Part shown: in pieces, positions 22,501 through 64,000 of the stretch
How the letters are laid out: each line of letters starts with the position of its first letter
Position numbering within the stretch: the stretch's first letter is position 1
Translations under genes and position numbers: made by a program
Assembly (NCBI GenBank): GCA_047601445.1
Contig: JASGJH010000001.1
Location: 4,928,001-4,992,000 of the forward strand
Length of the DNA: 64,000 nt
Source of the DNA: Myxococcales bacterium
GTDB lineage: Bacteria > Myxococcota_A > Polyangia > Polyangiales > DASUME01
Direction: 5' to 3'
Notes under the pieces: generated by a model
Database searches by the model: none
The model's input: the letters and a program-made list of their open reading frames with translations, nothing else
Told to the model about the DNA's origin: nothing

Positions 22501-23235
22501 GTCGGGACTGGGCGCGCGATAGGCCGCGTCGGAGAGCACCTCGACGCCGTTGAAGTAGAGCTTGCTCGCCCCGCCCGCGCCCAACCACAGGGTGATGGGG
22601 CCGGCCTTGTCGGCATGCAGGCTGGTCTCGGCGAACCCGCACACGTTCTCGGTCGGACGGAACACGGCATCGAAGCTCACGTAGCCGCCCTGCACGATGT
22701 CGGGCATCGAACGAAAGCGCACGTCGCGCTCACGGCCCTTGTAGACGGCCGCCGAGCTCGGGGGCGCAAACCGGTCGGTCTCGGGCCCGAGTTCGGTGCC
22801 AAAGCCGCGCTTGCCCTCGTTGTCGAAGGGCCCCACCACGCGGAAGGCGCGCAAGTATCCGAGCGCGTCGAAGGCCGCCACCGAGCCTGGCACGTCGCCC
22901 GTGCGACGCAGGTCCCAAGCCACCCGGCGCGCCGCGAACACGCGATGCTGCGGGTCGAGGTTAGGCGCGTCGGCAAGCTTGCGGAACGCGGCGAGGGACA
23001 CCTCGGGATCGGCATCGTCCGCACGGCGTACCATCTGCAGCAGCTCGAGCTGAGCCGCCGGCTCCTTGCCATGCGCGAGCGCCGCGGTGGCGCTCTTCTG
23101 TTGTCGTTCGTCGTAGGCCGAGTCTGCGCGCGCGCTCGACCACGCGAACACGTTCGCCAGCGAGAGCAGCGCAAATACGAGCAGGAAACGGCTTACGAAC
23201 CGCTGAAGACGTCGCATGTGACTCCGGAAGAACAC
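19546..23235 (-). CDS. Secreted TPR, DUF3857 and transglutaminase-like protein with an intact Cys-His-Asp triad
   Basis: Signal peptide, TPR helices, 'FPDLEPGDSVELRY', 'RYVALEFG', GDCKDKA, FDHAIAY and FLDGT. Confidence 0.85.
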   Translation of the reverse strand: MFFRSHMRRLQRFVSRFLLVFALLSLANVFAWSSARADSAYDERQQKSATAALAHGKEPAAQLELLQMVRRADDADPEVSLAAFRKLADAPNLDPQHRVFAARRVAWDLRRTGDVPGSVAAFDALGYLRAFRVVGPFDNEGKRGFGTELGPETDRFAPPSSAAVYKGRERDVRFRSMPDIVQGGYVSFDAVFRPTENVCGFAETSLHADKAGPITLWLGAGGASKLYFNGVEVLSDAAYRAPSPDRDVALVQAKQGENRILVKSCVTSGSWGFYLRVGDARGQPLTLRANPLKIEALTKAEPPKKPAAGPKSVLHQLEEAANKPKPKAQDLENLARFLWFSGADDPAERRAQQLARRAAELEPTASRWLLASSLADERYEKLRFVGKARALAPNDPDVVLAHAQLVSQGPSGETALAMLDALPDTGAIGLDKAKAKSALLSQLGLDDSAAVLVREAHKQAPRAESFDSRMLDVLASDPHQDELIELAKTLLAKRYDHLPARRILLEDAVARDRETEAMEHLDALRALFPGDEKRLFFVAEAYDAIGREDLRLATLKSVIDIAPESAVGHVRYGRALLRAGQTDAAAESFRTALKYSPQDAETRELLEQIVPEKRVDEAFAEDSEAILKRRKSTSNHPVSVLQDLTVNTVFENGLGSRFVQFAAQVHDAEGARRMRARSIQFDPETQRVDIRLARVHRENGQVLDATETYEQQLGEPWYRVYYDTRALVVVFPDLEPGDSVELRYRVDDVAPRNVFADYYGDLHMLAGGEPRARVEYVLITPSSREFYFNKPNMPALKHERKVEGQRRVDRFSAEDVPALRSEPSMPGLTEVIPYLHVSTYKTWEDVGRWYWGLIQDQLYADDHLKNVVAELKKGAKDEREIVQRIYGWVVKNTRYVALEFGIHGFLPYRVPEVVRRGFGDCKDKASLIYTMLREAGVDARVVLVRTRQNGAIDSEPASLSVFDHAIAYVPSLKLFLDGTAEHSGTRELPGGDQGVMVLLVGPDVKAELVKTPVLPPESNLRTRNLQIQLSADGAGQVTVKETIAGVDAARYRNTFQAEGTRKDRLERQLSSSYPGLTLEHHAVDGLTELERDVTLDYRLKAPQVARLEGDELRIGATSLRDLLREMATGPTRKFPLELNVKNAYREERTVRAPAGFSVRTLPAGGEVKSRFGSLRVSSERKSAGEVVSTSHFQMDVDRVEAADYPEFRRFIEQADEILKQRIAFAREAK

Positions 23236-25776: not shown

Positions 25777-26364
25777 CTACTCCGCGCGTGCCTGATCCTC
25801 GGCCACCGCCTTGGCGGCTTCCTTCGCGGAAAGCGGAGGCGCCCCCAAAAAGGTGCGCTCCTCCAGCGTGAGGCTCACCCCGCGCCCCTGATCGACGAGC
25901 GCGACCTGGACGTCGAAGCGCATCGCGTTGGCCTCCGCCGACAGCGGCATCACCGAGCGATAGATGGCCCCTTCCCCGAGCTCGTCCACCTGCCCTGTGA
26001 GCATGCGCGCGGCCAGGTAGTCCCGCAGCTGCGTCATGCTGACCTGGTGCGACACGAACGCGTGGTGTTGGGGCCGGGAGGCCGCGTTCTCGAAGCCGGC
26101 GGGGATCTCGAACCAGGCGATGCGTAGGCCGCTGGGCTTCAGGCGCCCCTCCGCATCGATGGGGCTCTCCGCGCGCACCGCGGCGCTGGTGACCGACGCT
26201 GCTTTGGGCGCGCTCGAGGGCTCCTCGCGAGGACCCGCCGCTGGTCCACTACACGCGGCCAGCCCCCACGAGACCACGAGCGCCATCGATGCGGCCCCGC
26301 AACTCGGCCCGGAGCCGGTCCGCAGCCCTCGCGGCCGCGACCCGCGCCAACCCTCGCGTCTCAT
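25777..26364 (-). CDS. Hypothetical lipoprotein
   Basis: Lipobox 'GLAAC'. The ATG at 26364 overlaps the pilY1 stop (ATGA); alternative start at 26286. Confidence 0.55.
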   Translation of the reverse strand: MRREGWRGSRPRGLRTGSGPSCGAASMALVVSWGLAACSGPAAGPREEPSSAPKAASVTSAAVRAESPIDAEGRLKPSGLRIAWFEIPAGFENAASRPQHHAFVSHQVSMTQLRDYLAARMLTGQVDELGEGAIYRSVMPLSAEANAMRFDVQVALVDQGRGVSLTLEERTFLGAPPLSAKEAAKAVAEDQARAE

Positions 26365-29300
26365 TCGAGCGACCCACCCCAACCGACGAAGCGTGCTTCG
26401 GCCGGGATCGAGAGCGACTGTGTGTACTGATTGAGCAGCGAGTTGTCGGCGCGCGTGCCGCCCTTGCCGGAGATCATGGCGCGGATCTGGTACTGACCGC
26501 CCGTGATCTGGGAGTCGGCCGCGGCGGACTTCTTGATGGCGAACGGAGAGTACTGATTGTCCGAGAGCCCCGCCACGCATACCGGATCACTCGCGACCGA
26601 CACGCCGAGGATCAAGCTGTCGTCGAAGTCCTTGTTGATGTAGCTGACGTAGATCGGCTTGTGATCGGCGTCCTCGCCGTTGACGAACATCGGCTCGGGC
26701 CCGCTCGAAGGGACATTCTTGCCCTCGGGGGTCTTCGTCTTGGTGTCCATGTAGTGGATGCCCCACAGGCGACTGAAGCCGAAGTCGCAGGCATTGCCGG
26801 TCTGCGGACTCACGAAGCTGCCGAAGTAGAGCACCTTGTTGAACAGCGACAGCGGACCCGTGACCGACTCACCGGGCTCGAGCTGGACGTCCCAGTTGGC
26901 ATCGACCGTGCCCTTGAAGATCTGCCCATTCGAAGTGTCGAGCTCACGTGTCTCGAGCAGCGACACCAGACGCTGACGAACGGGGTCGGCGGCGTTGGGC
27001 TTCTCCACCAGGTTATCGATGTCGCCGGTGCCCACCATGATCACGTAGTGACCGCTGGCGTCGCGGCTCAACAGCGGAGGATGAATGGAGGGACGGCCCT
27101 TGTCGTAGCCAGTGAGCGTGTTGAGCGGATCGTGGAACAGATCCCAGAGCGGCTCCACGAGCCACTTGCTCGGGTTGGGATCGGCCATCGAGAGGCGCCA
27201 CAGCACGCCGTCCTGGTCGGTGAAATAGGCAGCGCGGGACACGTCGAGGCCGTCGCCGTCCACCGCCACGGAGCCCGTGAGCGGAGACGGGAAGTGTTGG
27301 GCGTCGAACTCCTGGATCAGCTGACCCGTGGCAACATCCACGATGTAGAGGCCGCGTCCGCGCTGCTCCCAGCAGCGCACCTTGGCGCGCTTGCCCGCCG
27401 GGAACTTGGCGAGGGTCTTGTCGGCCACCAGCGTGGTGGTGGTACAGGTACCGGACGAAGGCTGATGTCCCTGACCGCCCGGCAAGATGGCGATGGCGCG
27501 CTCGCGCGCGGTGCTCTCGTTGTCCCACAGGATGCGGGCCTGGGCGAGCGCGGGAGTCGCCACGGTGAGTCCCATCGCGGCTGACGAGAACTGCCACAGG
27601 AACTTCGGCGGCTTGTCGGCTTCCGTGATGTCGAGCGCGACGTAGGCGGGCGCCCCGCGCAACGCGGAGACCAACACCGTGGCGTAGGTCCCCTGGCGGG
27701 TCGTGGCATCGCGCGAGAGCAGCATGTTGCGGACCTGCGGGGTGCCGTCGAACATCTCCTGGTGCGTGGGCGCGGCGGCCGAGGCGAGCTTGCCGAACAG
27801 GGCCGGCGGCACGAAGCCCCAGAACTCCACGCCAGCCTTGACCTCGGTGTTGCTCCTATCCTTCCAGGTGTCGAGGTTGAAGGCGTGCAACACGCCGTCG
27901 TTGGTGCCCACGAACACCACACCCGGACGGCCGTCTGCGCCGTACTTGTCGAGGCCCGTGGGTGCCGGCAGCGAGAGCTTGCGCAGGTAGTTGTTGAGCT
28001 GCTCGTCGCTGGTGTTGATGAAGCGGCTGTTCGAGACGAGCGGCGGCAAGGCCACGGGGTTCGAGTGATAGATGTCGGCCAAGGCGGGCTTGCGCTCGGT
28101 GGGATCGGCGCGCACGTAGCGCACGATCTTGTCGCGGTCGCTGCCCTCGCCGGACACGCCGTTCCCATCGGCGTCACCGAACAAGGAGCTCGCGAGGCTG
28201 TCCTTGTCGAAGTTCACGTCGGTGTAGTCGTAGGCGACCTCGGCCTGATTCGTGTTGATCGAGACGTCGTAGGCCGGGCGATTCGTATCGAAGGTGCCCG
28301 AGGACGCTCGCACGTTGTAGACGTTCGTGGCGTTCTCGTTGGACTTGGTGCGGTAGCGCGTGGACAGCTCCCCGAAGCGGCCACCCAGGATGGTGGCGCG
28401 CGCAGCCGTGGCCGACTTGGGCACCACCGTGGTGATAGTGCGGCCGTTCGACGTCTTACTCTGCTCGTCCAGCTTAAGGTGGAAGAAGTCACCGTCTGCC
28501 TCGGAGAGGTCCAACGGCTCCGGCGCCAGCGGCGCGCCCACGCAGCCGAAGCGTTGGCGATACAAGAGGCCCTCCCAGGGGTCGTTCTCGTCGTCGCCGA
28601 TGCGGAAGCCGGCCGTGATCTCGTACTGCTGCGCGCCCGCGTACGGAGGCAGGCCGTTGTCGACGACCTGCGGCGTGGAGCGCGTGGCCGCGTCATGCGA
28701 CACGTTGCCGAGGATGCTGCTGAGCTTCTTGCGCAGTTCGGCCGGCGTGGACGCGGGGATGGAGGGGCGCTCGCCGCCCTTCTGGGCGATCTCGTCGAGG
28801 ATGGCCTTGGCGTTCTCGTCCACGTCGAAGGCCACCACCAAGAGCTCCTTGAGCAGCTTGCTGGTCTTCAGCTCGGCGGCCAGCTCGGACTCGGTGGGAT
28901 AGGGGCAGGAGCACTTGTGGTCGCTGCAGTTGTCGAGGTCGCCCGTACTCAGACAGGCGCAGTCGGCGTCGTTGGTGGTCTGGCACTGAAAGCGATTGTC
29001 GCGGAACAGGGCATCGGGCGCGCCGTCGGTGATCAAGATGGCGTAGCGCTCACGGCATTCCGCGAAGACGTCGTTGCCGCCGCTCTTCACCGAGTCGTCG
29101 TTCGTCAGGTAGTACTTGAGGTCGTCGAGCATGGCGGCGATGGGGGTGCCGCCGAAGGGGCGCACCGCGAGCAGCGAGCTCTGCACGTCCTGATTCACTT
29201 TGACGATGTCGTCGCCGTCCTCGGCCACCGCGATCAGCGCGCCCTCGTGGTCGCCGGGTCCGCGAGCTCCCGCGTTCACGCCGTAGGCTTCGCAGTGCGG

Positions 29301-29906
29301 GAACGCCAGGCGTCCGGTGCGGCCGTAGGAGTAGATGCCGGGCGAGCTGGCCACAGCATCCATGAAGGGGATGTCCTTGCTAAAACGGTCGAAGGCCACC
29401 AGGGTCTCGCCGCCCAGCGTGGTGCCCACGCCGTCGAAGGTCATCAAGCCGAACTTGATGCGCTGCGAGAAGGCGTCCACTACGCCGTCCGAATCCTGAT
29501 TCTGCAGGGTCACGAAGTCGCTGGCGGCGGTGGTGAAGTTGTAGTGCGGGATGTAGTAGCCGGAGTCGTACTTCTTGGCGTACTTGTTCTCGCTGCGCAG
29601 CTCCTTGCGACAGGTGAAGTCCTGGAAGGTGCCGGTCAGCGCCTCGAGGGTCACCGCCCAGCGATTCTTCTGCGTCGTGTCCTTGGTCGTGTCGCCCGTG
29701 CACTTGGGAAAGTCGTCGTCGGTGGTCGCCGTGGCCGGCCCGGGCATGCGCTCCATGGAGCCCGAGGTATCGACCAGCAGCATCACCACCGGCTTGGGCC
29801 GCCGCACGTCGATGGCCGCTCCCGATTGGGCGGATGCAACGCCGGCCGCGCTCAAGGCGGCGAATGCGGATACGGCGACGCTTCGTTGGAACCAACGCAT
29901 GACCAC
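26361..29906 (-). CDS. pilY1: PilY1/PilC type IV pilus tip adhesin with an N-terminal vWA domain
   Basis: Signal peptide; MIDAS residues DTSGS, GGTP and ITDG; PilY1 propeller motifs 'LADIYHSNP', 'VFVGTNDGVLHAF', 'EFWGFVPP', 'FDGTP' and 'FLWQF'. Last gene after four prepilins. Confidence 0.9.
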   Translation of the reverse strand: MVMRWFQRSVAVSAFAALSAAGVASAQSGAAIDVRRPKPVVMLLVDTSGSMERMPGPATATTDDDFPKCTGDTTKDTTQKNRWAVTLEALTGTFQDFTCRKELRSENKYAKKYDSGYYIPHYNFTTAASDFVTLQNQDSDGVVDAFSQRIKFGLMTFDGVGTTLGGETLVAFDRFSKDIPFMDAVASSPGIYSYGRTGRLAFPHCEAYGVNAGARGPGDHEGALIAVAEDGDDIVKVNQDVQSSLLAVRPFGGTPIAAMLDDLKYYLTNDDSVKSGGNDVFAECRERYAILITDGAPDALFRDNRFQCQTTNDADCACLSTGDLDNCSDHKCSCPYPTESELAAELKTSKLLKELLVVAFDVDENAKAILDEIAQKGGERPSIPASTPAELRKKLSSILGNVSHDAATRSTPQVVDNGLPPYAGAQQYEITAGFRIGDDENDPWEGLLYRQRFGCVGAPLAPEPLDLSEADGDFFHLKLDEQSKTSNGRTITTVVPKSATAARATILGGRFGELSTRYRTKSNENATNVYNVRASSGTFDTNRPAYDVSINTNQAEVAYDYTDVNFDKDSLASSLFGDADGNGVSGEGSDRDKIVRYVRADPTERKPALADIYHSNPVALPPLVSNSRFINTSDEQLNNYLRKLSLPAPTGLDKYGADGRPGVVFVGTNDGVLHAFNLDTWKDRSNTEVKAGVEFWGFVPPALFGKLASAAAPTHQEMFDGTPQVRNMLLSRDATTRQGTYATVLVSALRGAPAYVALDITEADKPPKFLWQFSSAAMGLTVATPALAQARILWDNESTARERAIAILPGGQGHQPSSGTCTTTTLVADKTLAKFPAGKRAKVRCWEQRGRGLYIVDVATGQLIQEFDAQHFPSPLTGSVAVDGDGLDVSRAAYFTDQDGVLWRLSMADPNPSKWLVEPLWDLFHDPLNTLTGYDKGRPSIHPPLLSRDASGHYVIMVGTGDIDNLVEKPNAADPVRQRLVSLLETRELDTSNGQIFKGTVDANWDVQLEPGESVTGPLSLFNKVLYFGSFVSPQTGNACDFGFSRLWGIHYMDTKTKTPEGKNVPSSGPEPMFVNGEDADHKPIYVSYINKDFDDSLILGVSVASDPVCVAGLSDNQYSPFAIKKSAAADSQITGGQYQIRAMISGKGGTRADNSLLNQYTQSLSIPAEARFVGWGGSLE

Positions 29907-53199: not shown

Positions 53200-54129
53200 A
53201 TGCAGAGCAGCAGTGGTGTGGCGCCGGCTTCGGGTCATTGGACGAAAGACTACCTTCACGCGGGAGCCCTGCCGTTCTGGCTGATGCACGTGGCCGCGGC
53301 CATCGGCGTCGCCATGGTGGGCTTCTCCTGGTTCGGCCTGGGGCTCTTGTTCGTCACGTACTACGCCCGCATGTTCTTGATCACGGGCGGCTACCACCGC
53401 TACTTCTGCCACCGCGCCTACAAGACCTCGCGCTTCTTCCAGTTCGTGCTCGCCTTCTTGGGCGCGAGTTGTCTGCAGAAGGGCGCCATGTGGTGGGCAG
53501 GCAATCATCGCCACCACCACAAGTTTGCAGACACGTCGGAAGACCCGCACTCGCCGCGTGAGCAGGGTCTGGTCTGGGCGCACATGGGCTGGATCGTGAG
53601 CCCTAGAAACAACCGCACGCGCATCGAGCACGTGCGTGACCTGGCGCGCTATCCCGAGTTGGTATGGCTGGACAAGTATCACCTGGTGCCGGTGGTGCTC
53701 TACGCCGTGTGCATGCTCTGGGCCTTCGGAGGCACGGGCTTGGTCTGGGGCTTCCTCGTGTCCTCGGTCGTGCTCTGGCACGGCACCTTCACCATCAACT
53801 CCCTCACCCACGTGTTCGGCAAGCGTCGCTTCGAGAACAGCGACGACTCCTTGAACAGCCTGCCGCTGGCGCTGCTGACCATGGGCGAGGGCTGGCACAA
53901 CAACCACCACTACTACCAGAGCACGGCCAACCAGGGCTTCTACTGGTGGGAAATCGATATGTCCTACTACGTGCTGCTCGGCCTCGAAAAGCTCGGCATC
54001 GTGTGGGACCTGCGCAAGCCCCCGCAGTGGGTGCTCGACAAGGGCCTCGGCAAGCAGGTGGAAGAGCCTGCGGACGCCAAGGCTTCGCGCGAGCACAAGG
54101 TCGAGGCAGACGCCGTAGCGAGCCTCTGA
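53200..54129 (+). CDS. Membrane acyl-CoA/acyl-lipid delta-9-type fatty acid desaturase
   Basis: His boxes HRYFCH, HRHHH and GEGWHNNHH; 'DPHSP', 'INSLTH', 'WWEID'. Confidence 0.93.
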   Translation: MQSSSGVAPASGHWTKDYLHAGALPFWLMHVAAAIGVAMVGFSWFGLGLLFVTYYARMFLITGGYHRYFCHRAYKTSRFFQFVLAFLGASCLQKGAMWWAGNHRHHHKFADTSEDPHSPREQGLVWAHMGWIVSPRNNRTRIEHVRDLARYPELVWLDKYHLVPVVLYAVCMLWAFGGTGLVWGFLVSSVVLWHGTFTINSLTHVFGKRRFENSDDSLNSLPLALLTMGEGWHNNHHYYQSTANQGFYWWEIDMSYYVLLGLEKLGIVWDLRKPPQWVLDKGLGKQVEEPADAKASREHKVEADAVASL

Positions 54130-54254: not shown

Positions 54255-56303
54255 TCAGGCCGGCTCGGGCTCCCGAGCTGGCTCGCTGCGCGCCGGGACG
54301 GGCGCGACGGGGGCGGCCGCGAGGAGATCCGGCGCCACGCCGAGCTCGGCAATCTCGAGCAGCGCGTGCAGCGCCTCGGGGTTCTTGATCGCGGTCAGAT
54401 TGCGGGGTCGACGCCCGCTCAAGAGATCCTGCACGGCGCGCTCGGAGCGCTTGCCGTTGTGGGTCTGGGGCAGCGCCTGCACCTGCACCACCACGTCGGG
54501 AACGTGCACCGGGCTGGCCTTCTCCTTGAGCTCGCGCTTGATGCGAAAGGTCAAGGGACGGTCGAGCACCACACCGGGCTTGAGCACCAGGAGCAGCACC
54601 AGCTTCTTGCCGCCGGCCACGTTGGGCGCGTCCTGGTCGACCGCCATGGCCTCGGCCACCTCGGGGATGCGGCCCACGATGCCGTAGATCTCCGCGGGAC
54701 CGATGCGAATGCCGCGAATGTTGAGCACGCCATCGGAGCGCCCGAGGATGCGCGCGCTGCCGCGCTCGGTGAGCGCGATGAGGTCGCCGTGGGTCCACAC
54801 GTCTTCGTGCTGGGAAAAGTAGGCGTCGTGAAAGCGCGTGCCCTCTGGATCGCCGTAGAGCCCCACCGGACGCGAGGGGAAAGGTCGCACGCACACCAGC
54901 TCGCCCGTGCCCGCGCGCAGGTTCTCCGCGCCATCTCGCGCCCGCACGTCGTGTCCGAGGCTCACGCACTGGCTCTCGCCGCGGTACACGGGGAGCACGG
55001 GATTGCCGAGCACGAAGCAGCCGAGGATGTCGGTCCCCCCGGAGATGGACTGCAGCGGCAGGTCGCCGAAGGCTTGCTGGACGAAGTCGAATTGCTCGGG
55101 ATAAAGGATGGAGCCGGTAGAGAGCACTGCTCTCAGGCGACCGAGGTCACAGCGCTCCCGGGCGATAATCTCCGAATCCTGCAAGAACCGCAGGTAAGCC
55201 GGGCTCGTGCCAAACACGGTGACCTTGCGCTCCGCCAGGTGCTTGAGCAGGGAGTCGCTCTCCGGAAAGGACACGGAGCCGTCGTAGAGCACCACCTCGG
55301 CCTCGGTGGCCAAACCCGATACCAGCCAGTTCCACATCATCCAGCCTGTGCTGGTGACGAAGCAAATCGCGTCTTCGCGGGTGAGATCGGTATGGAGGAC
55401 CAGCTCCTTGAGGTGCTCGAGCAGCGTGCCGCCGTGGCCGTGCACGATGCACTTGGGGACCCCCGTGGTGCCCGACGAGAACAAGATGAACAGGGGATGA
55501 TCGAAGGGCACGCGCGTGAACCCGGCGCGCGCCGGCCCCTGCACCAGCTCCGCGAGGCGCAGCACCGGCACCGCCGGCGTGAAGCCGAGCTCCCCGTCGT
55601 CGAGTAGCACCAAGGTCTTCACGGACGGCAGGGCCTGCAAGAGGCGCTCGATGAACTCGGAGAGCGGCCGCGTTTGCCCCTGGAGCAAGAGCTTGGTGTG
55701 GGCGAACAGGAGCTCGGGCGCCAGCGCGCCGAAGCGACTCAAGACGCTGTCCACGCCCAAGTCGGGCGACACCGAGGACCAGCTGGCTCCCAGGCTTGCG
55801 CTGGCGAGACACGCCGTGACGGCGGCGGAGTCGTTGCGCGCGAGGGCCGCCACCCTGCTGTGACTACCGATGCCGCGCGCCTCGAGGCCCTGGGCCAGCG
55901 AGAGCACGTTGCCGCGCAGCTCGGCCCGCGTGAGCTGCACGAGCGTGCCGGCTTCGTCGAGCGTGCTCAAGACCACGCGCTTTTCGCCATCATCGGGCAA
56001 CGCTGCGTCGCCGCGCTGGCGCAGCAGGTTCTCCGCGTAATTCAGCCGGAGCTCGGGGAAGAAGCGGGCGCGCTCCACCTCGTCGCTCGTGCACACGGGT
56101 TCGAGCTCGCCCTCGCAAACAGGGGACAGGAACTCGACCAGACAGCGCCAAAAGTCACGATAGTGCTCGGTGGACCAGCGGTGCAGGGCTGGCCAGTCGG
56201 CGAGCTCCAGCTGAGTGCGGGCGCGCGCGAACTCCACGAAGCGTGCGAGCTGCGAGGACGCCGCCGCGGGACCGGGCTGGTAGGTGACCTTGGGCGCGCT
56301 CAC
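54255..56303 (-). CDS. Acetoacetate-CoA ligase family adenylate-forming enzyme
   Basis: 'RLNYAENLL', 'ILFSSGTTGVPKCIVHGHGG', 'GWMMWNWL', 'SISGGTDI', 'WTHGD', 'GRSDGVLN' and the A10 Lys in 'THNGK'. The GTG start abuts the carrier-protein stop. Confidence 0.9.
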   Translation of the reverse strand: MSAPKVTYQPGPAAASSQLARFVEFARARTQLELADWPALHRWSTEHYRDFWRCLVEFLSPVCEGELEPVCTSDEVERARFFPELRLNYAENLLRQRGDAALPDDGEKRVVLSTLDEAGTLVQLTRAELRGNVLSLAQGLEARGIGSHSRVAALARNDSAAVTACLASASLGASWSSVSPDLGVDSVLSRFGALAPELLFAHTKLLLQGQTRPLSEFIERLLQALPSVKTLVLLDDGELGFTPAVPVLRLAELVQGPARAGFTRVPFDHPLFILFSSGTTGVPKCIVHGHGGTLLEHLKELVLHTDLTREDAICFVTSTGWMMWNWLVSGLATEAEVVLYDGSVSFPESDSLLKHLAERKVTVFGTSPAYLRFLQDSEIIARERCDLGRLRAVLSTGSILYPEQFDFVQQAFGDLPLQSISGGTDILGCFVLGNPVLPVYRGESQCVSLGHDVRARDGAENLRAGTGELVCVRPFPSRPVGLYGDPEGTRFHDAYFSQHEDVWTHGDLIALTERGSARILGRSDGVLNIRGIRIGPAEIYGIVGRIPEVAEAMAVDQDAPNVAGGKKLVLLLVLKPGVVLDRPLTFRIKRELKEKASPVHVPDVVVQVQALPQTHNGKRSERAVQDLLSGRRPRNLTAIKNPEALHALLEIAELGVAPDLLAAAPVAPVPARSEPAREPEPA

Positions 56304-56570
56304 TCACGCTCCCTTGAACTGCGGGTGATTCACCACATAGGTGGTGATCTTGCGGAGCGAGTCGAAGTTCTCGCGCGTGAGGCTCTTGCGATCGATCTTG
56401 AGCTTGTAGTTCTCCTCGAGGAAGAGCGTGAGGTTCACGAAGCCCAGGCTATCGAGCACGCCGTTCTCGAGCAGCGACAGATCGTCGCTCTTGATCAGCG
56501 TCTCCGCGTCCCCGAAGTGATACTTGTCGTCGAGCCAGTCGATCACCGCACGTCGAACCTTGTCAGTCAT
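56304..56570 (-). CDS. Stand-alone acyl/aminoacyl carrier protein (DltC-like)
   Basis: 88 aa, with 'LLENGVLDSLG' phosphopantetheine site and 'ENFDSL'; GGAG RBS. Confidence 0.9.
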   Translation of the reverse strand: MTDKVRRAVIDWLDDKYHFGDAETLIKSDDLSLLENGVLDSLGFVNLTLFLEENYKLKIDRKSLTRENFDSLRKITTYVVNHPQFKGA

Positions 56571-56597
56571 CGCAACACTCCGCAGGCAAGACCCAGC

Positions 56598-58070
56598 TCA
56601 GAACTGGGCGTAGATGAACGACCCCTCGGACAGGGGCTTGAACAGGAACAAGTAGACCACGACCGTGCCATAGGCGAAACCGCGCAGCGGGGCGGGCACG
56701 CGCGCCGCCAGCTCGCGCAGGCGCTTGGCGGGCTCGGTCGCGGACAGATGGTAGAAAACCACGAAGCTCATGCAGAGCAGAAAGTTGAGCTTGTTGGAGA
56801 ACGCCCCCAGCTCGATCCTCTCTGCGCCGTTGGCCGCCCCGAGCAGACCGAGCGTGAAGGTGCCCGCGGTCTTGAGGTCCGGCGCGCGGAACGGGACGAG
56901 CGAGAACATGAACCAGCCCTGCGTCAGCAACCACGAGGTGACCACGTAGGCCCGGGACTTCCTGCGCTGCACCCAGACGCGGTCCTTGCGGCACAGGGTG
57001 CGGTAGTACTCGTCCCAGCGGTGCGCCGTCATGAGCACGAAGCCGTGCAACGCGCCCCACAGCACGAACATCCAGGTGGCGCCGTGCCAGATGCCGCTCA
57101 CCAGGAGCACGATGAAGAGGCCGGCCCCGAGCTTGCCGCGTAGGCGGCCCTCGCCGGTGACGAGCGGGCTGTAGATGTAGTCGAACAGGAAGTTGGTGAG
57201 CGAGATGTGCCAGCGCTTCCAGAAGTCGCTGATGTTGCGCGCCAGGAAGGGGAAACGGAAGTTCTCCACCAGCCCGATGCCGAAGAACTCGGCCACGCCC
57301 AGGGCGAGCAAGCTGTAGCCGGCGAAGTCGCAGAAGATCTGGCAGGTGTAGAGGTAGAGCACGAGCCAGTGGGCCGTGAGGGTGTAGTTAGCGGGCGCGA
57401 GATAGACCTGATCCACGAAGGGGCCCAGGAACGCCGACACCAGGAACTTCATGGAGAAGCCGAGCAAGAAAGCCTGGGCGCCGCGGGCGAAGCGCTCTGC
57501 ACTCGGCGCGCGCGGCTTCTCGAGCTGGTCGATGAGGTCGCCGCGGGCGATGGGGCCCGAGAGGATCTGCGGGAAAAAGGCCACGAAGGTGGCGAAGTCG
57601 AGCAGGGACTTGGGGCCCGCGCGGCGGCCATAGGAGACGTCGGTCACGTAGGCCACGAGCTGCAGCGTCCAGAACGAGATGCCGATGGGCACTCCCCAGC
57701 TCAACACCGGCGGCACGAAGCTCAACCCCAGCACCTGGGCGATGGCCGCGGCGGTGCTGGCGAAGAAGCCGAGATACTTGAGCAGCACCAGCTGCCCGAG
57801 GTTGTAGACCAGGCCGAGCCGCAAGATGGACTTGGAGTTCTCGGGCACGCCCTCGGCGTCGGGCTTACGCAGGCTCTTGAGCAGTCCGTAGTTCACCAGG
57901 GCAGTGAACACGAAGAGCCCGAGCATCTTGGGCCCGTAGCTGAAGTAGTAAATGTAGCTGGCCAGCAGAAGCACCGTGTTCTGCAGCCATGCCTTGCGGG
58001 GCACGAGCCAGTACAGCGCCAACACGGCGGGCATGAAGTACACGATGAACAGCGCGCTCGAGAAGCTCAT
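56598..58070 (-). CDS. MBOAT family O-acyltransferase (AlgI/DltB/PatA-like) with a C-terminal Tyr motif
   Basis: 'PIGISFWT', 'FFPQILSGPI', 'DFAGYS', 'ENF..P', 'DFWKRWHISL', catalytic 'SGIWHGA'; ends FIYAQF. Confidence 0.93.
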   Translation of the reverse strand: MSFSSALFIVYFMPAVLALYWLVPRKAWLQNTVLLLASYIYYFSYGPKMLGLFVFTALVNYGLLKSLRKPDAEGVPENSKSILRLGLVYNLGQLVLLKYLGFFASTAAAIAQVLGLSFVPPVLSWGVPIGISFWTLQLVAYVTDVSYGRRAGPKSLLDFATFVAFFPQILSGPIARGDLIDQLEKPRAPSAERFARGAQAFLLGFSMKFLVSAFLGPFVDQVYLAPANYTLTAHWLVLYLYTCQIFCDFAGYSLLALGVAEFFGIGLVENFRFPFLARNISDFWKRWHISLTNFLFDYIYSPLVTGEGRLRGKLGAGLFIVLLVSGIWHGATWMFVLWGALHGFVLMTAHRWDEYYRTLCRKDRVWVQRRKSRAYVVTSWLLTQGWFMFSLVPFRAPDLKTAGTFTLGLLGAANGAERIELGAFSNKLNFLLCMSFVVFYHLSATEPAKRLRELAARVPAPLRGFAYGTVVVYLFLFKPLSEGSFIYAQF

Positions 58071-59218
58071 GGCAAGGCACTCGCGGAGCCGGGGGAGCCG
58101 GCAGAGCTGATGTTGGCGGAACCGGCGGCGCCGGTGGAGCTGGTGTTGGCAGAAGGGGCGGAGCCGGGGGAGCTCATGGAGCCGGCTGAACCCAGCGTCG
58201 CGGGGGCCGGCGTCCCGAGGAACTTGAGCGGGCCCTCGAGGGCCCAACGGCTGATCTTCACGTCGCCCTCGTGGATGAGGTGATCGAGATCGGGCCGGAA
58301 GTCCGCATCGACCAGGGGACCGTCGGTCTGGAAGTCGAGCACCTTGGCGCCGAAGGGCGCCGCGCGCTTCTCGAGGTAGGCCTTGAAACGGTCGGTGACG
58401 GCCAGGGTCTCCGCGTTCTGCGCCTTGGGAATCACGGGCCAGATCACGAAGGTGACCTGGACGTTGCGCGCCTGGGCGAACTCCATCATCCGGTCGAGCG
58501 CGGGCTCCTGTTCACGCACGATGCACTTGGGGTGCGTCATGTCGCCCTCTTTGATCATGTCGATCCAGCCGACCAACGTGGCGTCTGCCACGGCTTGCTT
58601 GTCGGCTTCGCTCTTGGGGCTGAAGCGCTCGCGCACGTCGCGGAAGATGCGGAACACGCCGCGGTCGCGCACCAGCGCGGAGCCCGTGGTGAGCTCGTTC
58701 CAGCGCTGGTCTACGTAGTTGGCGTTGAAGGGTGTGGAGCCATTGACCGCGAAGTCGGCCACGTAGTCGCCGAGGTCCCAGGCGCGCGCGGGGAGGTTGG
58801 GATAGAGCTCGTCGTTGCCGCAGATGTCCCAGTAGTTGGTGACCACCACCATGTGCTTGAGCTTGGGTCGAACCAACGCGCCCTGAGCGTTCTTCTCGTC
58901 GATCATCGGCTGCAGTCGGTGCGTGAGCAGCCAGGTGTAAGCCAGGAAGCGTCCACCCTCGATGGGCACCACCGAGAGGTCGAGCGGACGGGCGGCCTCT
59001 TTGTACATGCCCGCGAGCGGGATGAAGGAGCGCACGTAGCTCGAGCCGAGCACCAGTACATCGGGGTTGGCGTCGTGGTAGTCGTCGATGGATTCTGCGG
59101 TCTCGTATTCGGCGGCCGGGATGCGCGCGATGCGCCCGAGGGCGACGTCCGCCAGCGCCACGAAAGCGACGGCGGAGAGCGCGACCACCAAAAGAGATTT
59201 GACAGAGCCGCTCGCCAT
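58067..59218 (-). CDS. Membrane-anchored SGNH-like protein (DltD/AlgJ-like)
   Basis: N-terminal TM helix, 'VLVLGSS' nucleophile block and 'DLDHL' (DxxH); low-complexity tail; ATGA overlap with the MBOAT gene. Start 59218 or 59227. Confidence 0.7.
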   Translation of the reverse strand: MASGSVKSLLVVALSAVAFVALADVALGRIARIPAAEYETAESIDDYHDANPDVLVLGSSYVRSFIPLAGMYKEAARPLDLSVVPIEGGRFLAYTWLLTHRLQPMIDEKNAQGALVRPKLKHMVVVTNYWDICGNDELYPNLPARAWDLGDYVADFAVNGSTPFNANYVDQRWNELTTGSALVRDRGVFRIFRDVRERFSPKSEADKQAVADATLVGWIDMIKEGDMTHPKCIVREQEPALDRMMEFAQARNVQVTFVIWPVIPKAQNAETLAVTDRFKAYLEKRAAPFGAKVLDFQTDGPLVDADFRPDLDHLIHEGDVKISRWALEGPLKFLGTPAPATLGSAGSMSSPGSAPSANTSSTGAAGSANISSAGSPGSASALP

Positions 59219-59238
59219 GAAAACCATTCTCCCGGCGC

Positions 59239-60204
59239 ATGGAAGCTAAAGACGACGCCGACGACCACAGTGTTTGGGCAGCGTTCGCCGCCTCGGCCAT
59301 CGACCCCAAGGTCGATGCGTTCAACCGGATGACCGCCCAAGCGCTCAGTCAGGTCGCGCCACTATACACGAAATCCATCGCCGTAGCTCGCCAGGAACGC
59401 GCCGATTGGACGCGGATTTCCGCGGTATCGGACGCATTTTGGCTCGATGTTCCGGAGGCCCGCAGCGCGCTCCGTGTGAGGGTGTTGCGCGCGAACTCGG
59501 CCAAGGCCGTGTACCTCCACGTGCATGGCGGAGGTTGGGTGCTCGGTGGAGCAGATCACCAAGACGGCCTGCTCGACGAGCTGCGCGTCCGGGCCGGTGT
59601 CAGCGTGGTGTCGGTGGAGTACCGGCTGGCACCTGAGCACCCGTTTCCCGCGGCGCTGGACGACGTCGAAGACGCGCTGCGCTGGGTATTGCAGGATGGC
59701 GCACAGAGTTTTGGCACTCGTCTCGTTATCGTGGGCGGCGAATCGGCCGGCGCGAACTTGGTTGTTTCGGCTCTGACCCGCCTGCGCGGACACCCGGCGT
59801 TCTCGGGCGTGGTGGCGGCCTGTCTTCACTACGGCACCTTCGATCTGATGGGGACCCCGAGTCTGTGGACGGCCGCGCCCGGCACGCCCTTCCTCGATCC
59901 CGCTCTGAGCAAATGGTTTCGTGAGCACTACGCGCATCCGGACCGGCACCGTGACCCGGAAGTCTCACCCATGTACGCGGATCTTACTGGCCTTCCCCCC
60001 GCTCAGTTTCTGATCGGTACGGTGGACGTGGTCCGCGACGATACCTTGTTCATGTGGGCCCGCTGGCGCGCCGCGGGCAATCGCGCGGAACTCGTGGCCT
60101 TGCCGGGCGGCCTGCACGGTCTCCTGGAAATGCGAACACCCCTCACGAAGCTCGGCCGCGAACGCGTGGTGAGCTTCATGCGACGCGCGGTCGCCGGCGA
60201 GTGA
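59239..60204 (+). CDS. Alpha/beta hydrolase, HSL esterase family
   Basis: HGGGW, 'YRLAPEHPFP', GESAG, and Asp/His in 'VDVVRDD' and 'GLHG'. The start may be later (59329). Confidence 0.9.
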   Translation: MEAKDDADDHSVWAAFAASAIDPKVDAFNRMTAQALSQVAPLYTKSIAVARQERADWTRISAVSDAFWLDVPEARSALRVRVLRANSAKAVYLHVHGGGWVLGGADHQDGLLDELRVRAGVSVVSVEYRLAPEHPFPAALDDVEDALRWVLQDGAQSFGTRLVIVGGESAGANLVVSALTRLRGHPAFSGVVAACLHYGTFDLMGTPSLWTAAPGTPFLDPALSKWFREHYAHPDRHRDPEVSPMYADLTGLPPAQFLIGTVDVVRDDTLFMWARWRAAGNRAELVALPGGLHGLLEMRTPLTKLGRERVVSFMRRAVAGE

Positions 60205-60355: not shown

Positions 60356-61384
60356 CTAGTGCGCGGGCTCGGGCGTCTCGCGTCCGAGCAGCTTCTTGAT
60401 GGTGCGCTTGAGGGCCGCGGCGTTGTTGCGCAGCTTGCGCTCCTGGAAGTGATTCTCACCAAAGCGATCACCCAGGAACGACTTGAGCTTTCCGTCGGCC
60501 AAGAGGAACGCGTGCAGGAGCTTCTTGCGCGTTTCGCTCGGGTAGTCGTGCAGCACTTCCTTGGCCACGCCTTCCCAGTGGGCGAGGTTGGCGAAGGTGG
60601 ACGAGACCGCGATGGAGATGGAGACCATGCGCGTGGCGTGCCACCAACCTTCGGGCACGTACACGGCTTCGCCGGGCTCCTGCACGAAGCGGATGGGCGT
60701 GGCCTTCTTGAACAGCGGGAAACGCTCGAAGTCCGGGTTTTCCAGGTTCGGGATGCGCGAGAGGCGACCGTCAGCGTAGAGATAGGGCGTGTCGACTGGG
60801 TCGAACATCCAGAAGCCCTTCTTGCCGTAGACCTGGCACAGCAGCACGGGGCAGGCGCTCGGGTCGTAGTGCAGGTCCGCGTAACCCTGGATGAACGCGC
60901 CGTGCACGCCGGCGTAGGCCCCCTGCTCGTCCGCCACGCGGCGCTCGAGGCGCGTGCCGGGTCCGCCGATGAAGAGCTCCGGTTCCGAGGCGCGGTTCAT
61001 GTGGTGGTCGACGCCCCAGTCGGGGTAGTAGCCGCGCAACCAGTTGGGCAACGCGTACTGCACGAAGGGCTGCAGGTCTTCACCGAGCTCCGGGGCGAAC
61101 TCGCGGATCACGCACTCGCGCAGGTAGGGCGCGGGCTTGTCGGGCGTGGCGGCTTCGACGGACTTGATGTAGTCGCCCATCTTCATGGACTTGCCACCGA
61201 GCGTCACGGTGCGGTGGCCGTGCTCGCTACGGAAGAACTCGGGCGACCACTTGCCGAGCGCCTTCCACTCCGGGAAGGCGTTGCGGATCACCACGGGGCG
61301 CTGGGCTTTGGCGTACTCGTTGATGAAGTCCGTATAGGAAAGCCGATCTCGTACGTCGATCTTGCCGGCAAGCACTTCCGTCAT
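60356..61384 (-). CDS. JmjC/cupin-8 2-oxoglutarate Fe(II) oxygenase
   Basis: 'QRPVVIR..WKA..KWS', 'LFIGG', 'LHYD' (HxD), 'QVYGKK', 'PGEAVYVPEGWWH'. GAGGAG RBS before the ATG at 61384. Confidence 0.88.
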   Translation of the reverse strand: MTEVLAGKIDVRDRLSYTDFINEYAKAQRPVVIRNAFPEWKALGKWSPEFFRSEHGHRTVTLGGKSMKMGDYIKSVEAATPDKPAPYLRECVIREFAPELGEDLQPFVQYALPNWLRGYYPDWGVDHHMNRASEPELFIGGPGTRLERRVADEQGAYAGVHGAFIQGYADLHYDPSACPVLLCQVYGKKGFWMFDPVDTPYLYADGRLSRIPNLENPDFERFPLFKKATPIRFVQEPGEAVYVPEGWWHATRMVSISIAVSSTFANLAHWEGVAKEVLHDYPSETRKKLLHAFLLADGKLKSFLGDRFGENHFQERKLRNNAAALKRTIKKLLGRETPEPAH

Positions 61385-61484
61385 GACTGTCCGCTCCTCG
61401 AAATCCGAAGCTCGCTGTGCTCCGTGAAAAACTGCCGCAGAAGATAGCTCGCGGCCGTGAACCACGAAAGCTGGTTGCCTTCGT

Positions 61485-61561
61485 GCGCGAAGCGAACCTC
61501 GCGGTGGGGTGGGCCCCGGCACGGCTTGGCCGCGACGGGCGGGAGGTCGCGTGACCTCCCC
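61485..61561 (-). repeat. Diverged single copy of the 75-bp core element from 13789-14069
   Basis: The minus strand reads GGGGAGGTCACGCGACCTCCCGCCCGTCGCGGCCAAGCCGTGCCGGGGCCCACCCCACCGCGAGGTTCGCTTCGCGC. Confidence 0.92.
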
Positions 61562-61566
61562 GAAAA

Positions 61567-62292
61567 TCAGGTGCCGGCGCGACGGAAGTAGGCGTGGTTG
61601 AATTCACCGGCGTAGAGCACGGAAATCTGCTCCGGCTTGTCCTTGATGAAGCGGTCGGCTCCGACGCGAACGCCAGGGTTCAGGTTCTCTGCATCGGGCG
61701 TCTCCGGGTGCCAGTAGTCGATGAACGAGCAGATGGCGCCCGGAGCCATGCGCGGGTAGAGGTGTGTGAGTACGGTCTCGATGGTCTTGGCGTGCTCTTC
61801 GGGGTCGCCGCCAAAGCCGCAATCGATGTGTGCGAAGGCGACGCGCTCCGGGAATTCCTGGGGAATCGTCTTGGCGAAGTCGCCCTGGTGAATCTGGGGC
61901 ACGGGCAGCGAACGCTCACGGAAGTTCTGCTCGAGGCGCGCGCGGGGATTGGGTTCGCTCCAGTTGGGTACGAAGCTGTCGTAGACGTGCATCGTGCGGG
62001 GAGCCTTGGCCTGGCCCTCGCCCTGCAGGATCTTGGTGATCAAGACGGCCGTCTGACCCGTGAACGTGCCGACTTCGATGAAGTCGCCCGGCACGTCGAA
62101 GGCCAGGAGCTGACTCACCATGTGATAGAGATTGATGCGCTGCTCGACGCAGGTCATGTAGCCGGTCACACCGGACGCGCGGACGTACATGCCGCGCCCC
62201 AGAGCCTTGAGCGCGCGGTTGACGAGCTTGACCCGGCGGCTTCCGCCATCGAAGGTCCAATCGAAATCACGTGTGATGAATAGGTTGTGCAT
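61567..62292 (-). CDS. TylF/MycF/NovP-like O-methyltransferase
   Basis: 'VPGDFIEVGTFTG', 'VYDSF', 'GDFAKTIP', 'AFAHIDC', 'LYPRMAPGA', 'GVRVGADRF'. Confidence 0.82.
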   Translation of the reverse strand: MHNLFITRDFDWTFDGGSRRVKLVNRALKALGRGMYVRASGVTGYMTCVEQRINLYHMVSQLLAFDVPGDFIEVGTFTGQTAVLITKILQGEGQAKAPRTMHVYDSFVPNWSEPNPRARLEQNFRERSLPVPQIHQGDFAKTIPQEFPERVAFAHIDCGFGGDPEEHAKTIETVLTHLYPRMAPGAICSFIDYWHPETPDAENLNPGVRVGADRFIKDKPEQISVLYAGEFNHAYFRRAGT

Positions 62293-62303
62293 GACTCTCG
62301 GAG

Positions 62304-64000
62304 CTACTCGGCTTCCACCAGGGGGAGTTGTTGTTCGAGGCGGACTCCGGCGAAGAAGCCGCCCTTGGCGTCCGACTCTTTTTCCAGGGAGCGCAGGGCG
62401 CGATCGAGCGAGGAGCGCACGCGCTGGGCGAGCGCGCGCACGTGGGGCTCGTCGAGCAGCGAAGCGTGATTGCCCGGCACCTCGATGACCTGGAGGGCGC
62501 CCTGGATGACTCCACCCCAACCGTTGTGCTCGTCGCGCATGTACTCGAAGTCACCGGCCGCACGGTTGGTGCGCACGCGGAACAGCACGGCGTCGCCAGG
62601 ATAGTTCGGCGGCGCGTAGCCCTGGATGGCGCGCGACCAGGCAGCTTCCACGCGTCCGCCGTCGAGGGAGCGCTCCCAGAGTCGGACCGCCACCGCTGGC
62701 GCATGGCGCTCGAGGAATTCCTTGCTGCGCTCCTCGACGCGGCGGCGTCCGAGCATCGTCACGTAGCGCGGACCCAGCTCCTGCAGGAGCGAGAAGTGCT
62801 CGGCCACGCGCTCGGGCCAGTCGAGCCCCTTGGTGGCGGGGTTCCAGGCGTCGAGGAAGAACAGCGGCGCCACCTTGCCCCCACCCTGCTGCAGCTTGAG
62901 GGCCATGTGGATGATGAGGGCGCCGCCCGCCGAGAAACCGGCCAAGAGGTAGGGTCCTCGCGGGCAAACCTTGCGCACCTCGGCCACGTACTCATCGACC
63001 ATGGCGTCGATGCTCTCGTGGGGCGCCATGATGCCGTCCACACCGCGCGACTGCAGTCCGTAGACGGGTTGATCGGGTCCGAGCGATATCGCCAAGTGAC
63101 GCAGGTTCATCACGTTGCCGCCACTGCCGCCCACGCAGAACAAGGGCGGGCGATGTCCGGCCGGCTGCATGGCCACCAGGCTCGACCAGGTGTACTCGCG
63201 CGGAGGCGGCGGCACGCTGTGGCCGTTGTTCGACTCCACGCGGGTCTCGACCTCGATGAGCTTCGCGAACTCGCGCACCGTGGGGGCTTTGATGAGCAGG
63301 GCCAGCGGGACCGGAATGCCGTAGGCAGCCTTGATCTTGGCGCTGACGCGCACCGCCGAGAGCGAGCTGCCGCCGAGATCGAAGAAGTTGTCCGTGGCCC
63401 CCACGCGGTCGAGGTTGAGCGCCTGGGCCCAGATCTTGGCGATGGCGCGCTCGATGCCCGCGTCGGGCTCGACGAAGTCGCGGCGGATCTCGCTGCGAGA
63501 AAGCACGTTGACCCCTACGTGCAGGGGCTCCGGAAGCTGCCCTACGACCGACTGCGCCGTGGACGAAGCCAGGTCGTCGAGCACGATGCGCGCGACCTCC
63601 TGGGCCGGCACGCCGCGGCGGATTTGGGCGGCCAGCGCGCGCGCGTTGCGGTCGGCGGCGGTACCCTCCTGCTCGATGGAGCGCGCCAGGGTCGCGTACA
63701 TGCCCTGATCCGAGACCAGGCCCAAGTCGAAGACCTGGGCCATCCCGTCCACGTGACGCGCGTTGGCGTCGGCGAACTCGGCTGCCGCGATGCTGGCGGA
63801 GAGGCCGGCGCGGGGCGAGAACCGCGCGGCGTTGCCGAAGCCCACCAGGAAGTCGAGCTCGTAGCGGATCACCTCACGCAACACGCGCCAGCCGTAGACC
63901 TCCGCGGCCAACGCATCATGGGCCTCACTGACGGTGCCGGTGGCGAGCAGCCACTCATCGAGCGTACCGGCGGCGTGGAACACGCCGTTGAGGGTGCCGA
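62304..64000 (-). CDS. 3' end of a modular PKS or PKS/NRPS hybrid: KR-like domain, carrier domain and thioesterase (partial)
   Basis: KR 'GVFHAAGTLD'; carrier 'IWAQAL..DRVG.TDNFFDLGGSSL'; TE 'PLFCV', 'VYGLQ', 'GPYLLAGFSAGG', 'VPGNH'. The frame is open to the window edge. Confidence 0.9.
   Translation of the reverse strand, partial: GTLNGVFHAAGTLDEWLLATGTVSEAHDALAAEVYGWRVLREVIRYELDFLVGFGNAARFSPRAGLSASIAAAEFADANARHVDGMAQVFDLGLVSDQGMYATLARSIEQEGTAADRNARALAAQIRRGVPAQEVARIVLDDLASSTAQSVVGQLPEPLHVGVNVLSRSEIRRDFVEPDAGIERAIAKIWAQALNLDRVGATDNFFDLGGSSLSAVRVSAKIKAAYGIPVPLALLIKAPTVREFAKLIEVETRVESNNGHSVPPPPREYTWSSLVAMQPAGHRPPLFCVGGSGGNVMNLRHLAISLGPDQPVYGLQSRGVDGIMAPHESIDAMVDEYVAEVRKVCPRGPYLLAGFSAGGALIIHMALKLQQGGGKVAPLFFLDAWNPATKGLDWPERVAEHFSLLQELGPRYVTMLGRRRVEERSKEFLERHAPAVAVRLWERSLDGGRVEAAWSRAIQGYAPPNYPGDAVLFRVRTNRAAGDFEYMRDEHNGWGGVIQGALQVIEVPGNHASLLDEPHVRALAQRVRSSLDRALRSLEKESDAKGGFFAGVRLEQQLPLVEAE

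Follow-up and report, generated by a model that had tools for sequence, protein, structure and literature searches.

What does an enzyme of the acetoacetate-CoA ligase (AACS) family do in an operon whose other genes resemble a machinery for passing acyl groups across the membrane? The question is raised by a stretch of 64,000 nucleotides from a Myxococcales bacterium (contig JASGJH010000001.1, positions 4,928,001 to 4,992,000 of the forward strand), here called the window, in whose own numbering positions are given. On its minus strand four open reading frames (ORFs) lie head to tail in the order SGNH, MBOAT, carrier and ligase:

58067..59227, minus strand: SGNH-like gene, encoding a candidate membrane-anchored SGNH-fold acyltransferase with a DltD/PatB-like role
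56598..58070, minus strand: MBOAT gene, with catalytic H329 and a fused C-terminal FxYxxF motif (F485-Y487-F490)
56304..56570, minus strand: carrier gene, encoding a stand-alone carrier protein with its phosphopantetheine Ser41 in GVLDSLG
54255..56303, minus strand: ligase gene, encoding an AACS-derived adenylating enzyme of a separate clade, the predicted carrier loader

The answer favored here, at a probability of about 60%, is a full relay in which acetoacetate or 3-hydroxybutyrate would pass from the carrier to a Tyr of the MBOAT, then to a Ser of the SGNH protein, and from there to an extracytoplasmic glycan. That the transfer depends on the carrier, whatever the acid or acceptor, is highly probable. 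The genes, residues, folds, linkage, and phylogeny of the four-gene operon are observed directly. Every chemical step of the relay is inferred by analogy with Dlt and PatAB. Following that analogy, a phosphopantetheinyl transferase would prime the carrier at Ser41. The AACS-derived ligase would then adenylate free acetoacetate, possibly 3-hydroxybutyrate, and hand the acyl group to the carrier thiol rather than to CoA; the free acid would come from a 3-oxoacid CoA-transferase, 3-hydroxy-3-methylglutaryl-CoA (HMG-CoA) lyase, or a linked hydrolase. The acyl-carrier would dock on the cytoplasmic face of the MBOAT, where His329 would shift the acyl group to the enzyme's own Tyr487 at the outer face. 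Lastly, Ser62 of the anchored SGNH protein would accept the acyl group and pass it to the extracytoplasmic glycan, for which exopolysaccharide, capsule, and lipid-linked amino sugar are the candidates.

Linkage of the four genes and their conserved residues

A preliminary description of this DNA had reported four tightly coupled genes, and recomputed coordinates and junctions agree with it: SGNH and MBOAT share a 4-bp ATGA overlap, MBOAT and carrier are 27 bp apart, and there is a 0-bp gap between carrier and ligase. The motifs it named are likewise present, namely GSS (S62) and DLDH (D313/H316) in the SGNH protein, SGIWHGA (H329) and FIYAQF in the MBOAT, and GVLDSL (S41) in the carrier. At these junctions no further gene would fit, and the ORF search covered lengths of 60 aa or more. 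Conservation of the linkage, which the preliminary description had proposed to survey, was examined in 92 loci picked on the carrier profile and nothing else (80 metagenome and 20 genome loci, minus 8 duplicates). Where 400 or more bases of downstream sequence are available (71 loci), the gene immediately after the carrier is the ligase in 62; in 2 the ligase lies farther on, and in 7 none is seen. The MBOAT directly precedes the carrier in 64/82 loci. Of the 48 loci with long flanks, 31 have the four genes in one unbroken run (one of them, in genome G074, with a frameshifted ligase), and 9 of the 17 exceptions are genome loci, each with the missing genes elsewhere in the same genome.

In a phylum sample of 401 genomes, 21 have the carrier family. 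The SGNH family occurs in 22: the same 21 and one more, which is 86% complete and has only a partial SGNH match. As controls, 37 canonical AACS loci (1.5-kb flanks) were compared with the profiles of carrier, SGNH, and MBOAT without a single match, and in 79 loci of generic MBOATs (flanks up to 8 kb) the only matches were weak, at 37 bits or less. The four-gene linkage is far beyond chance. Chance clustering and a housekeeping AACS caught beside an AlgI-type pair were both rejected on the 401-genome co-occurrence, the carrier-selected linkage, the control loci, and the ScoB co-occurrence described below.

The four genes occur together in many uncultured bacteria, and named homologues carry Gram-negative labels (Myxococcota, Polyangiaceae, Gemmatimonadales, and Panacagrimonas). 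The gammaproteobacterial record, from Panacagrimonas, keeps the same gene order at 48-70% identity with its MBOAT frameshifted. Among 60 relatives, 9 of them of the same genus, no ligase match with an adjoining carrier was found, and the distribution of the operon is therefore patchy. A genome search by MBOAT returned mostly generic MBOATs, with the operon in 1 of 80 loci, and a plasmid collection gave carrier matches of only 30-34% among the 20 listed of 74 records.

The MBOAT passes PF03062 (96.7 bits), and its model fold is closest to DltB (6bug, E 4e-13). H329, F485, Y487, and F490 are invariant in 43/43 aligned MBOATs, all of which end in FxYxxF; in the model, residues 488-490 have a predicted local confidence (pLDDT) under 50. 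The operon MBOATs form a distinct subfamily: their scores are 659-776 bits, and no other MBOAT of these genomes exceeds 441. The protein also contains a basic helical stretch, LCRKDRVWVQRRKS, at residues about 354-370 (window 56961-57011), in which C360, R361, V367, and R370 are invariant in 43/43. This stretch is a candidate carrier-docking surface.

A search with the carrier gave 288 relatives with E-values of 0.001 or lower. In the 63 that were aligned, S41, L42, and G43 are present throughout and the family signature is WLDDxYHFG; the residue preceding the Ser is Asp in 47/63 and Ala, Asn, or Thr in 16/63. The operon carrier has no Pfam match, PF00550 included, which several homologues do have, and its matches to NCBIfam carrier models (weak AmcB, DltC, and ACP hits at E 4e-10 to 9e-3) are all below cut-off.

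The SGNH protein has no Pfam or NCBIfam match, and its predicted model (pLDDT 94) has an SGNH fold. It has a single N-terminal hydrophobic helix at residues 12-30 and a low-complexity Ser/Ala/Gly tail. Its relatives in the representatives library number 118, and when the 62 near-full-length ones were aligned with the query, S62, S63, G92, D134, D313, and H316 were invariant in 63/63, making S62-D313-H316 the putative catalytic triad. The best structural match of the model among GDSL/SGNH proteins has Z 14.8, root mean square deviation (rmsd) 3.0, and 177 aligned residues; PatB has Z 14.1 (rmsd 3.6, 181 aligned) and DltD Z 12.9 (rmsd 5.2, 239 aligned). By Z-score most of the top matches are GDSL esterases, which would suit a protein that acts as an esterase in a module that removes, recycles, or exports an acyl group, as would the second, solo SGNH copy in the same genome. 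This reading is very unlikely: Foldseek places DltD (E 8e-5) and then PatB first, DltD aligns the most residues (238-239), and an ATP-consuming loader together with a carrier and an MBOAT with a shuttle Tyr is a set for forward transfer.

The solo paralogue (G000:C1:3329563-3330600) is 47% identical to the operon copy and divergent from a gene for a 526-residue membrane protein without a family match; a local profile of the PMT_2-type proteins found near related operons does not match this membrane protein either. Two SGNH copies also occur in several other carrier genomes. The solo paralogue may give the same MBOAT a second outlet, toward another acceptor.

The ligase, its acid, and its acyl acceptor

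The ligase passes both AACS models, TIGR01217 (620.8 against a cut-off of 520.9) and NF002937 (682.1 against 639), and its best PDB match is the acetoacetate-CoA ligase 4wd1 (E 7.5e-130), which bears out the AACS signatures read from it earlier. No DltA model is among the best 25 of its 80 NCBIfam matches. The relay residues are invariant, and the earlier statement that all equivalents of the Dlt pathway are present but that the loader is not a D-Ala ligase is supported. The genome holds one MBOAT and one AACS-like gene. TIGR01217 scores are 526-658 bits in carrier genomes and 715-973 for full-length matches in other genomes, where lower scores belong to fragments.

The preliminary description had also proposed a phylogeny against housekeeping acetoacetyl-CoA synthetases, and this places the operon ligases in a separate clade. 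In a 91-sequence tree, 50 carrier-associated ligases stand apart from 37 canonical AACS, a set made up mostly of the 30 top scorers of one phylum sample. FastTree support for the split is 0.73, or 0.97 without one divergent sequence (from locus L212), and SH-aLRT support in a 36-sequence subset is 95. Nested in the operon ligase clade is a 1071-residue fusion of ligase, carrier, and thioesterase (L082/L269; L269:582-3794, G047:C145), around which 12 kb contained no operon carrier, MBOAT, or SGNH gene.

The acid pocket is shared between the two groups. W321, M322, M323, T396, G397, G422, G423, and D425 are present in 50/50 clade and 37/37 canonical enzymes, the catalytic Lys618 in 49/50 and 37/37, and the motifs TxGWMMWNW, STGS, and SISGGTD are nearly the same in both. 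Besides acetoacetate, 3-hydroxybutyrate is a substrate of some AACS enzymes. Supply of the acid was examined through ScoB (3-oxoacid CoA-transferase subunit B), which is present in 19 of the 21 carrier genomes, in 16/83 genomes with a non-clade TIGR01217 match, and in 215/297 with neither AACS type. Ordinary AACS therefore mostly replaces the CoA-transferase, whereas the operon ligase clade does not. One of the two carrier genomes without a ScoB match is G074, whose frameshifted ligase (L204, G074:C17) reflects either decay or an assembly error.

At several loci genes for candidate suppliers adjoin the operon itself. HMG-CoA lyase and CoA-transferase subunits A and B lie directly upstream in L138, subunit B lies two genes upstream in L121, and both subunits directly follow the ligase in L164 and L183. 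In L123 a short-chain fatty acid transporter, below the TIGR00366 cut-off, lies beside the carrier-ligase pair. Acetoacetate is the common product of the adjoining lyase and CoA-transferase genes, and these neighbors point to it as the acid. In the genome of the window, a CoA-transferase pair and three HMGL-like genes lie elsewhere from the operon, and no 3-hydroxybutyrate dehydrogenase was found over cut-off. HMG-CoA lyase was rejected as a universal supplier, being present in only 10/20 carrier genomes. Another candidate, as supplier or editor of the free acid, is the HSL-family hydrolase encoded next to the operon. Its orthologues adjoin the operon or its ligase in L001, L114, L117, L146, and L267, to which it is 38-49% identical (140-273 bits), against at most 86 bits for paralogues in its own genome.

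The acid carried by the same relay could be a different one, for instance 3-hydroxy-3-methylglutarate, some other short hydroxy or keto acid, or one freed by a neighboring thioesterase or hydrolase. In L183, a glycan locus, an archaeal-type HMG-CoA synthase (passing TIGR00748), a thiolase, and a ChsH2 OB-fold gene lie directly upstream of the operon (L183:4861-7456); in L149 a MaoC-dehydratase/SDR fusion lies downstream; and some positions adjacent to the pocket (316, 418, 428) are unlike canonical AACS. The near identity of the pocket motifs and the convergence of the adjoining lyase and CoA-transferase genes on acetoacetate argue against it, however, and such a substitution is considered improbable.

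Where the acyl group goes after adenylation is the second question that the ligase raises. Position 593 aligns with Arg584 of Salmonella Acs, which contacts the CoA 3'-phosphate and distinguishes CoA from dephospho-CoA (PMC10455477). It is Arg in 37/37 canonical AACS and in 3/50 of the clade, with Lys in this ligase; among its 119 closest database homologues, the equivalent Arg is found in 8. Arg599 is present in 37/37 canonical enzymes and 0/50 of the clade, and position 210 is K/R in 35/37 and V/A/Q in 42/50, respectively. Newly conserved basic residues have arisen in the clade at 156, 478, 530, 582, and 589 (R156, R530, R582, K589), and its motif A8 reads NxRG instead of the canonical NPGG. 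The carrier family is acidic (mean net charge -3.6), which the gained residues would suit. These are signs, read from alignments, that the clade uses a carrier rather than CoA. A predicted ligase-carrier complex scored 0.32 against 0.00 for the best control, with contacts agreeing at 91% or more and partner pLDDT of at least 84; in the benchmark, passes at 0.60 or under comprised 18 of 157 solved complexes and both passing mismatches of 215. The model thus lends weak support to the pairing.

A different explanation holds that the enzyme is still a CoA ligase and the carrier secondary, so that acetoacetyl-CoA would feed the MBOAT, as in PatA, or reach the carrier in some other way. The enzyme does pass the AACS equivalog cut-off, and nothing else AACS-like in the carrier genomes does; moreover, MBOATs of the fused FxYxxF type use acyl-CoA in the tested case (PMC12148441), and some CoA ligases lack the Acs arginines (PMC10455477). 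Set against this are the joint loss of the basic positions 210, 593, and 599 of canonical AACS, the clade member fused to carrier and thioesterase domains, and the co-occurrence of the clade with ScoAB, unlike canonical AACS. In addition, where the operon is split the carrier mostly stays with the ligase (10 loci), although it stays with the MBOAT in L198 and L208. That the ligase serves CoA in this way is judged a poor bet, and loading of the carrier remains the preferred reading.

The acceptor and the neighboring genes

The acceptor is the least certain part of the proposed relay. Around the operon the window contains the following:

59239..60204, plus strand: HSL-family alpha/beta hydrolase gene (PF07859), divergent from the operon
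60356..64000, minus strand: JmjC/cupin gene, TylF O-methyltransferase gene, and the 3' end of a KS-KR-T-TE polyketide synthase (PKS) gene, part of a nonribosomal peptide synthetase (NRPS)/PKS cluster running beyond the window
53200-54129: fatty acid desaturase gene (PF00487), converging on the ligase gene

Neighbors within about 6.5 kb were annotated and counted by hand for 47 related loci (11 near-duplicate loci were left out except for a few genes). Glycan-synthesis genes were found in 20/47, encoding glycosyltransferases, Wzx, Wzy, Wza/Wzc, UDP-GlcNAc 2-epimerase, DegT aminotransferases, polysaccharide deacetylases, and PMT_2; three loci were added by the local profile of PMT_2-type neighbors. 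A phosphopantetheinyl transferase gene is nearby in 4/47, and no PF00487 desaturase is among the annotated neighbors. The reference list of PMC6628131 contains a title on O-(3-hydroxybutanoyl) groups of Rhizobium exopolysaccharide. The preliminary description had suggested that a short keto or hydroxy acid is attached to the envelope; neighbors at related loci agree, pointing to acetoacetate and often to surface glycans, but the window itself offers no glycan gene in support.

The acyl group might instead be transferred by the same carrier-fed relay to the product of the neighboring NRPS/PKS, a secreted or membrane-bound lipopeptide or glycolipid. A related NRPS/PKS adjoins the operon in this genome and in five of the 47 loci (L001, L114, L124, L194, L200), across three ligase sub-branches, and TylF genes stand beside it in the window, L124, and L194. 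The neighbors of this operon are the hydrolase, JmjC, TylF, and NRPS/PKS genes, in a window without glycan genes, and AerO, AerP, and AerQ of varlaxin offer a precedent (PMC10143770). The varlaxin passage of that review, however, names no SGNH partner. The NRPS/PKS is linked in a minority of related loci, outside the operon core, 5/47 against the 20 with glycan genes, and is not among the annotated neighbors of L117, a close ligase relative. Since L124 and L194 carry both NRPS/PKS and glycan genes, the NRPS/PKS may itself serve glycan decoration. Such an acceptor here is unlikely, and a glycan is still the preferred target. Nonetheless, the absence of glycan genes from the window together with the NRPS/PKS neighbor suggests that the acceptor may differ between lineages.

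The NRPS/PKS of this genome (window 62304-64000, G000:C1:4990304-5006666) seems split by an inversion, with C-A-T-KS-AT on the plus strand and T-aminotransferase, C-A-T, and KS-KR-T-TE on the minus strand. In the five related loci, A-T-KS-AT-T-aminotransferase lies in a single ORF. The SGNH and hydrolase genes diverge, and with only 11 bases between their earliest possible starts (window 59227-59239), either the promoters extend into coding sequence or translation in fact begins farther inside the genes. Ribosome-binding spacing makes the second ATG, at 59218, the likely start of the SGNH gene. Scans of the window found no composition shift marking the operon, a promoter and terminator scan of the operon stayed at chance level, and no sequencing runs covering it are listed. 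Elsewhere in the window, three large ORFs of 1142-1246 residues lie at 15809-23235 and 26364-29789, two without a Pfam match at 1e-8 and the third with a DUF3857 and a transglutaminase-like domain.

Several observations weigh against the full relay. With regard to the acceptor, 27/47 annotated loci have no glycan gene within about 6.5 kb, some of their contigs being short, and none was found among the 41 other genes scanned in the window. In the SGNH family, the putative block III region of the alignment has no conserved Asn, the usual oxyanion-hole residue, and instead has the invariant Asp134. The 21 carrier genomes represent 8 families and 15 genera, so their counts are not independent, and because the canonical AACS set consists of top scorers, conservation is favored in it. 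None of the 21 has a canonical AACS, so the clade enzyme could also serve CoA. Loss of the Acs Arg584 equivalent alone is no proof of lost CoA use, and this ligase has a Lys there. In the Methanothermobacter thermautotrophicus enzyme Arg586Lys, the mildest variant, is still active at 58-fold lower catalytic efficiency; the kcat of the Salmonella variant is only about 2-fold lower, as cited in the same paper; and Macs uses CoA without these arginines (PMC10455477). Finally, the score of the ligase-carrier complex coincides with the mark, and resemblance to already solved pairs of A domain and carrier may account for it.

A more specific proposal can be attached to the relay. Many related loci encode aminotransferases and polysaccharide deacetylases, which leave free amines. 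Keto esters are known from polymer chemistry to cross-link by enamine formation, and could do so with these amines. The system might thus install acetoacetyl (beta-keto) groups on surface glycans, with the keto ester acting as an enamine cross-linker or as a metal chelator in the matrix; ketone-body metabolism would feed it directly, by way of an AACS clade that loads carriers and is mis-annotated. This is a long shot, and the literature search found no acetoacetyl substituent on surface glycans.

Comparison with known acyl transfer systems

Taken together, the operon is a real, conserved, and apparently uncharacterized form of MBOAT-SGNH acyl relay. The preliminary description knew of no characterized pathway with this combination, and in a full-text literature search no publication turned up on an AACS-like ligase accompanied by a carrier, an MBOAT, and an SGNH protein; Schultz et al. 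2023, on the Dlt mechanism, lay outside that search and may list such clusters. The varlaxin set discussed below is a partial precedent (PMC10143770; PMC13122637, on MBOAT tailoring). PMC11255334 and PMC11584562 provide motif and substrate background only.

Dlt, which D-alanylates lipoteichoic acid, consists of an adenylating loader, a free carrier, an MBOAT with a catalytic His, a shuttle Tyr in FxYxxF, and an anchored SGNH transferase (PMC12148441; PMC11035591). The operon has a counterpart of each, and at the level of the fold its MBOAT is nearest DltB and the best Foldseek match of its SGNH protein is DltD. The FXYXXF motif and the His-Tyr-Ser relay are described in PMC12148441, and docking of DltC on the cytoplasmic face of DltB in PMC11035591. 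Unlike Dlt, the operon has an AACS-derived loader with an AACS-type acid pocket in place of a D-Ala ligase, it carries the shuttle motif fused to the MBOAT itself (43/43) instead of on DltX, and the named homologues have Gram-negative labels. Both the MBOAT and the carrier are far below the cut-offs of the Dlt models: the MBOAT scores 165.9 bits with the DltB model TIGR04091 (cut-off 375), and the carrier 26.6 with TIGR01688 (cut-off 52.35) and 32.3 with NF003464 (cut-off 68), both DltC models. The operon appears to work like Dlt yet, judged by the DltA, DltB, and DltC sequence models, is not Dlt.

The fused C-terminal motif (FIYANF in NgPatA, FIYAQF here) and the anchored SGNH partner are shared with the MBOAT-SGNH O-acetyltransferases PatA/PatB and those of the AlgI/AlgJ type (PMC12148441). 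PatA, however, uses acetyl-CoA, and MBOAT/SGNH pathways other than Dlt are described as having no carrier because acyl-CoA is used (PMC12148441), whereas the present MBOAT comes with its own closely linked carrier and ligase, the carrier directly following the MBOAT in 64/82 loci, and the donor is predicted from the genes. Compared with AACS, the ligase passes both cut-offs and has the same acid-pocket motifs and the same Lys618, but its clade lacks the CoA-side arginines, co-occurs with ScoAB, and has one member fused to carrier and thioesterase domains. If carrier loading is correct, a clade of at least 119 homologues with its signature, annotated as acetoacetate-CoA ligase, loads carriers, and the annotation misleads metabolic reconstructions.

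A stand-alone adenylation domain, a carrier, and an MBOAT also make up the varlaxin set of AerO (A domain), AerP (PCP), and AerQ (MBOAT), for which addition of an acyl group to an NRPS product is a biosynthetic proposal (PMC10143770). The acid there is Hpaa, and the passage names neither an AACS-type loader nor the SGNH partner found here. In the two-class picture of PMC12148441, Dlt combines a carrier with a separate DltX, and PatA/AlgI combine acyl-CoA with a fused motif and no carrier. The operon represents a third arrangement, carrier plus fused motif, from which one would predict either a substituent new to the envelope or a new way of making 3-hydroxybutyryl glycans.

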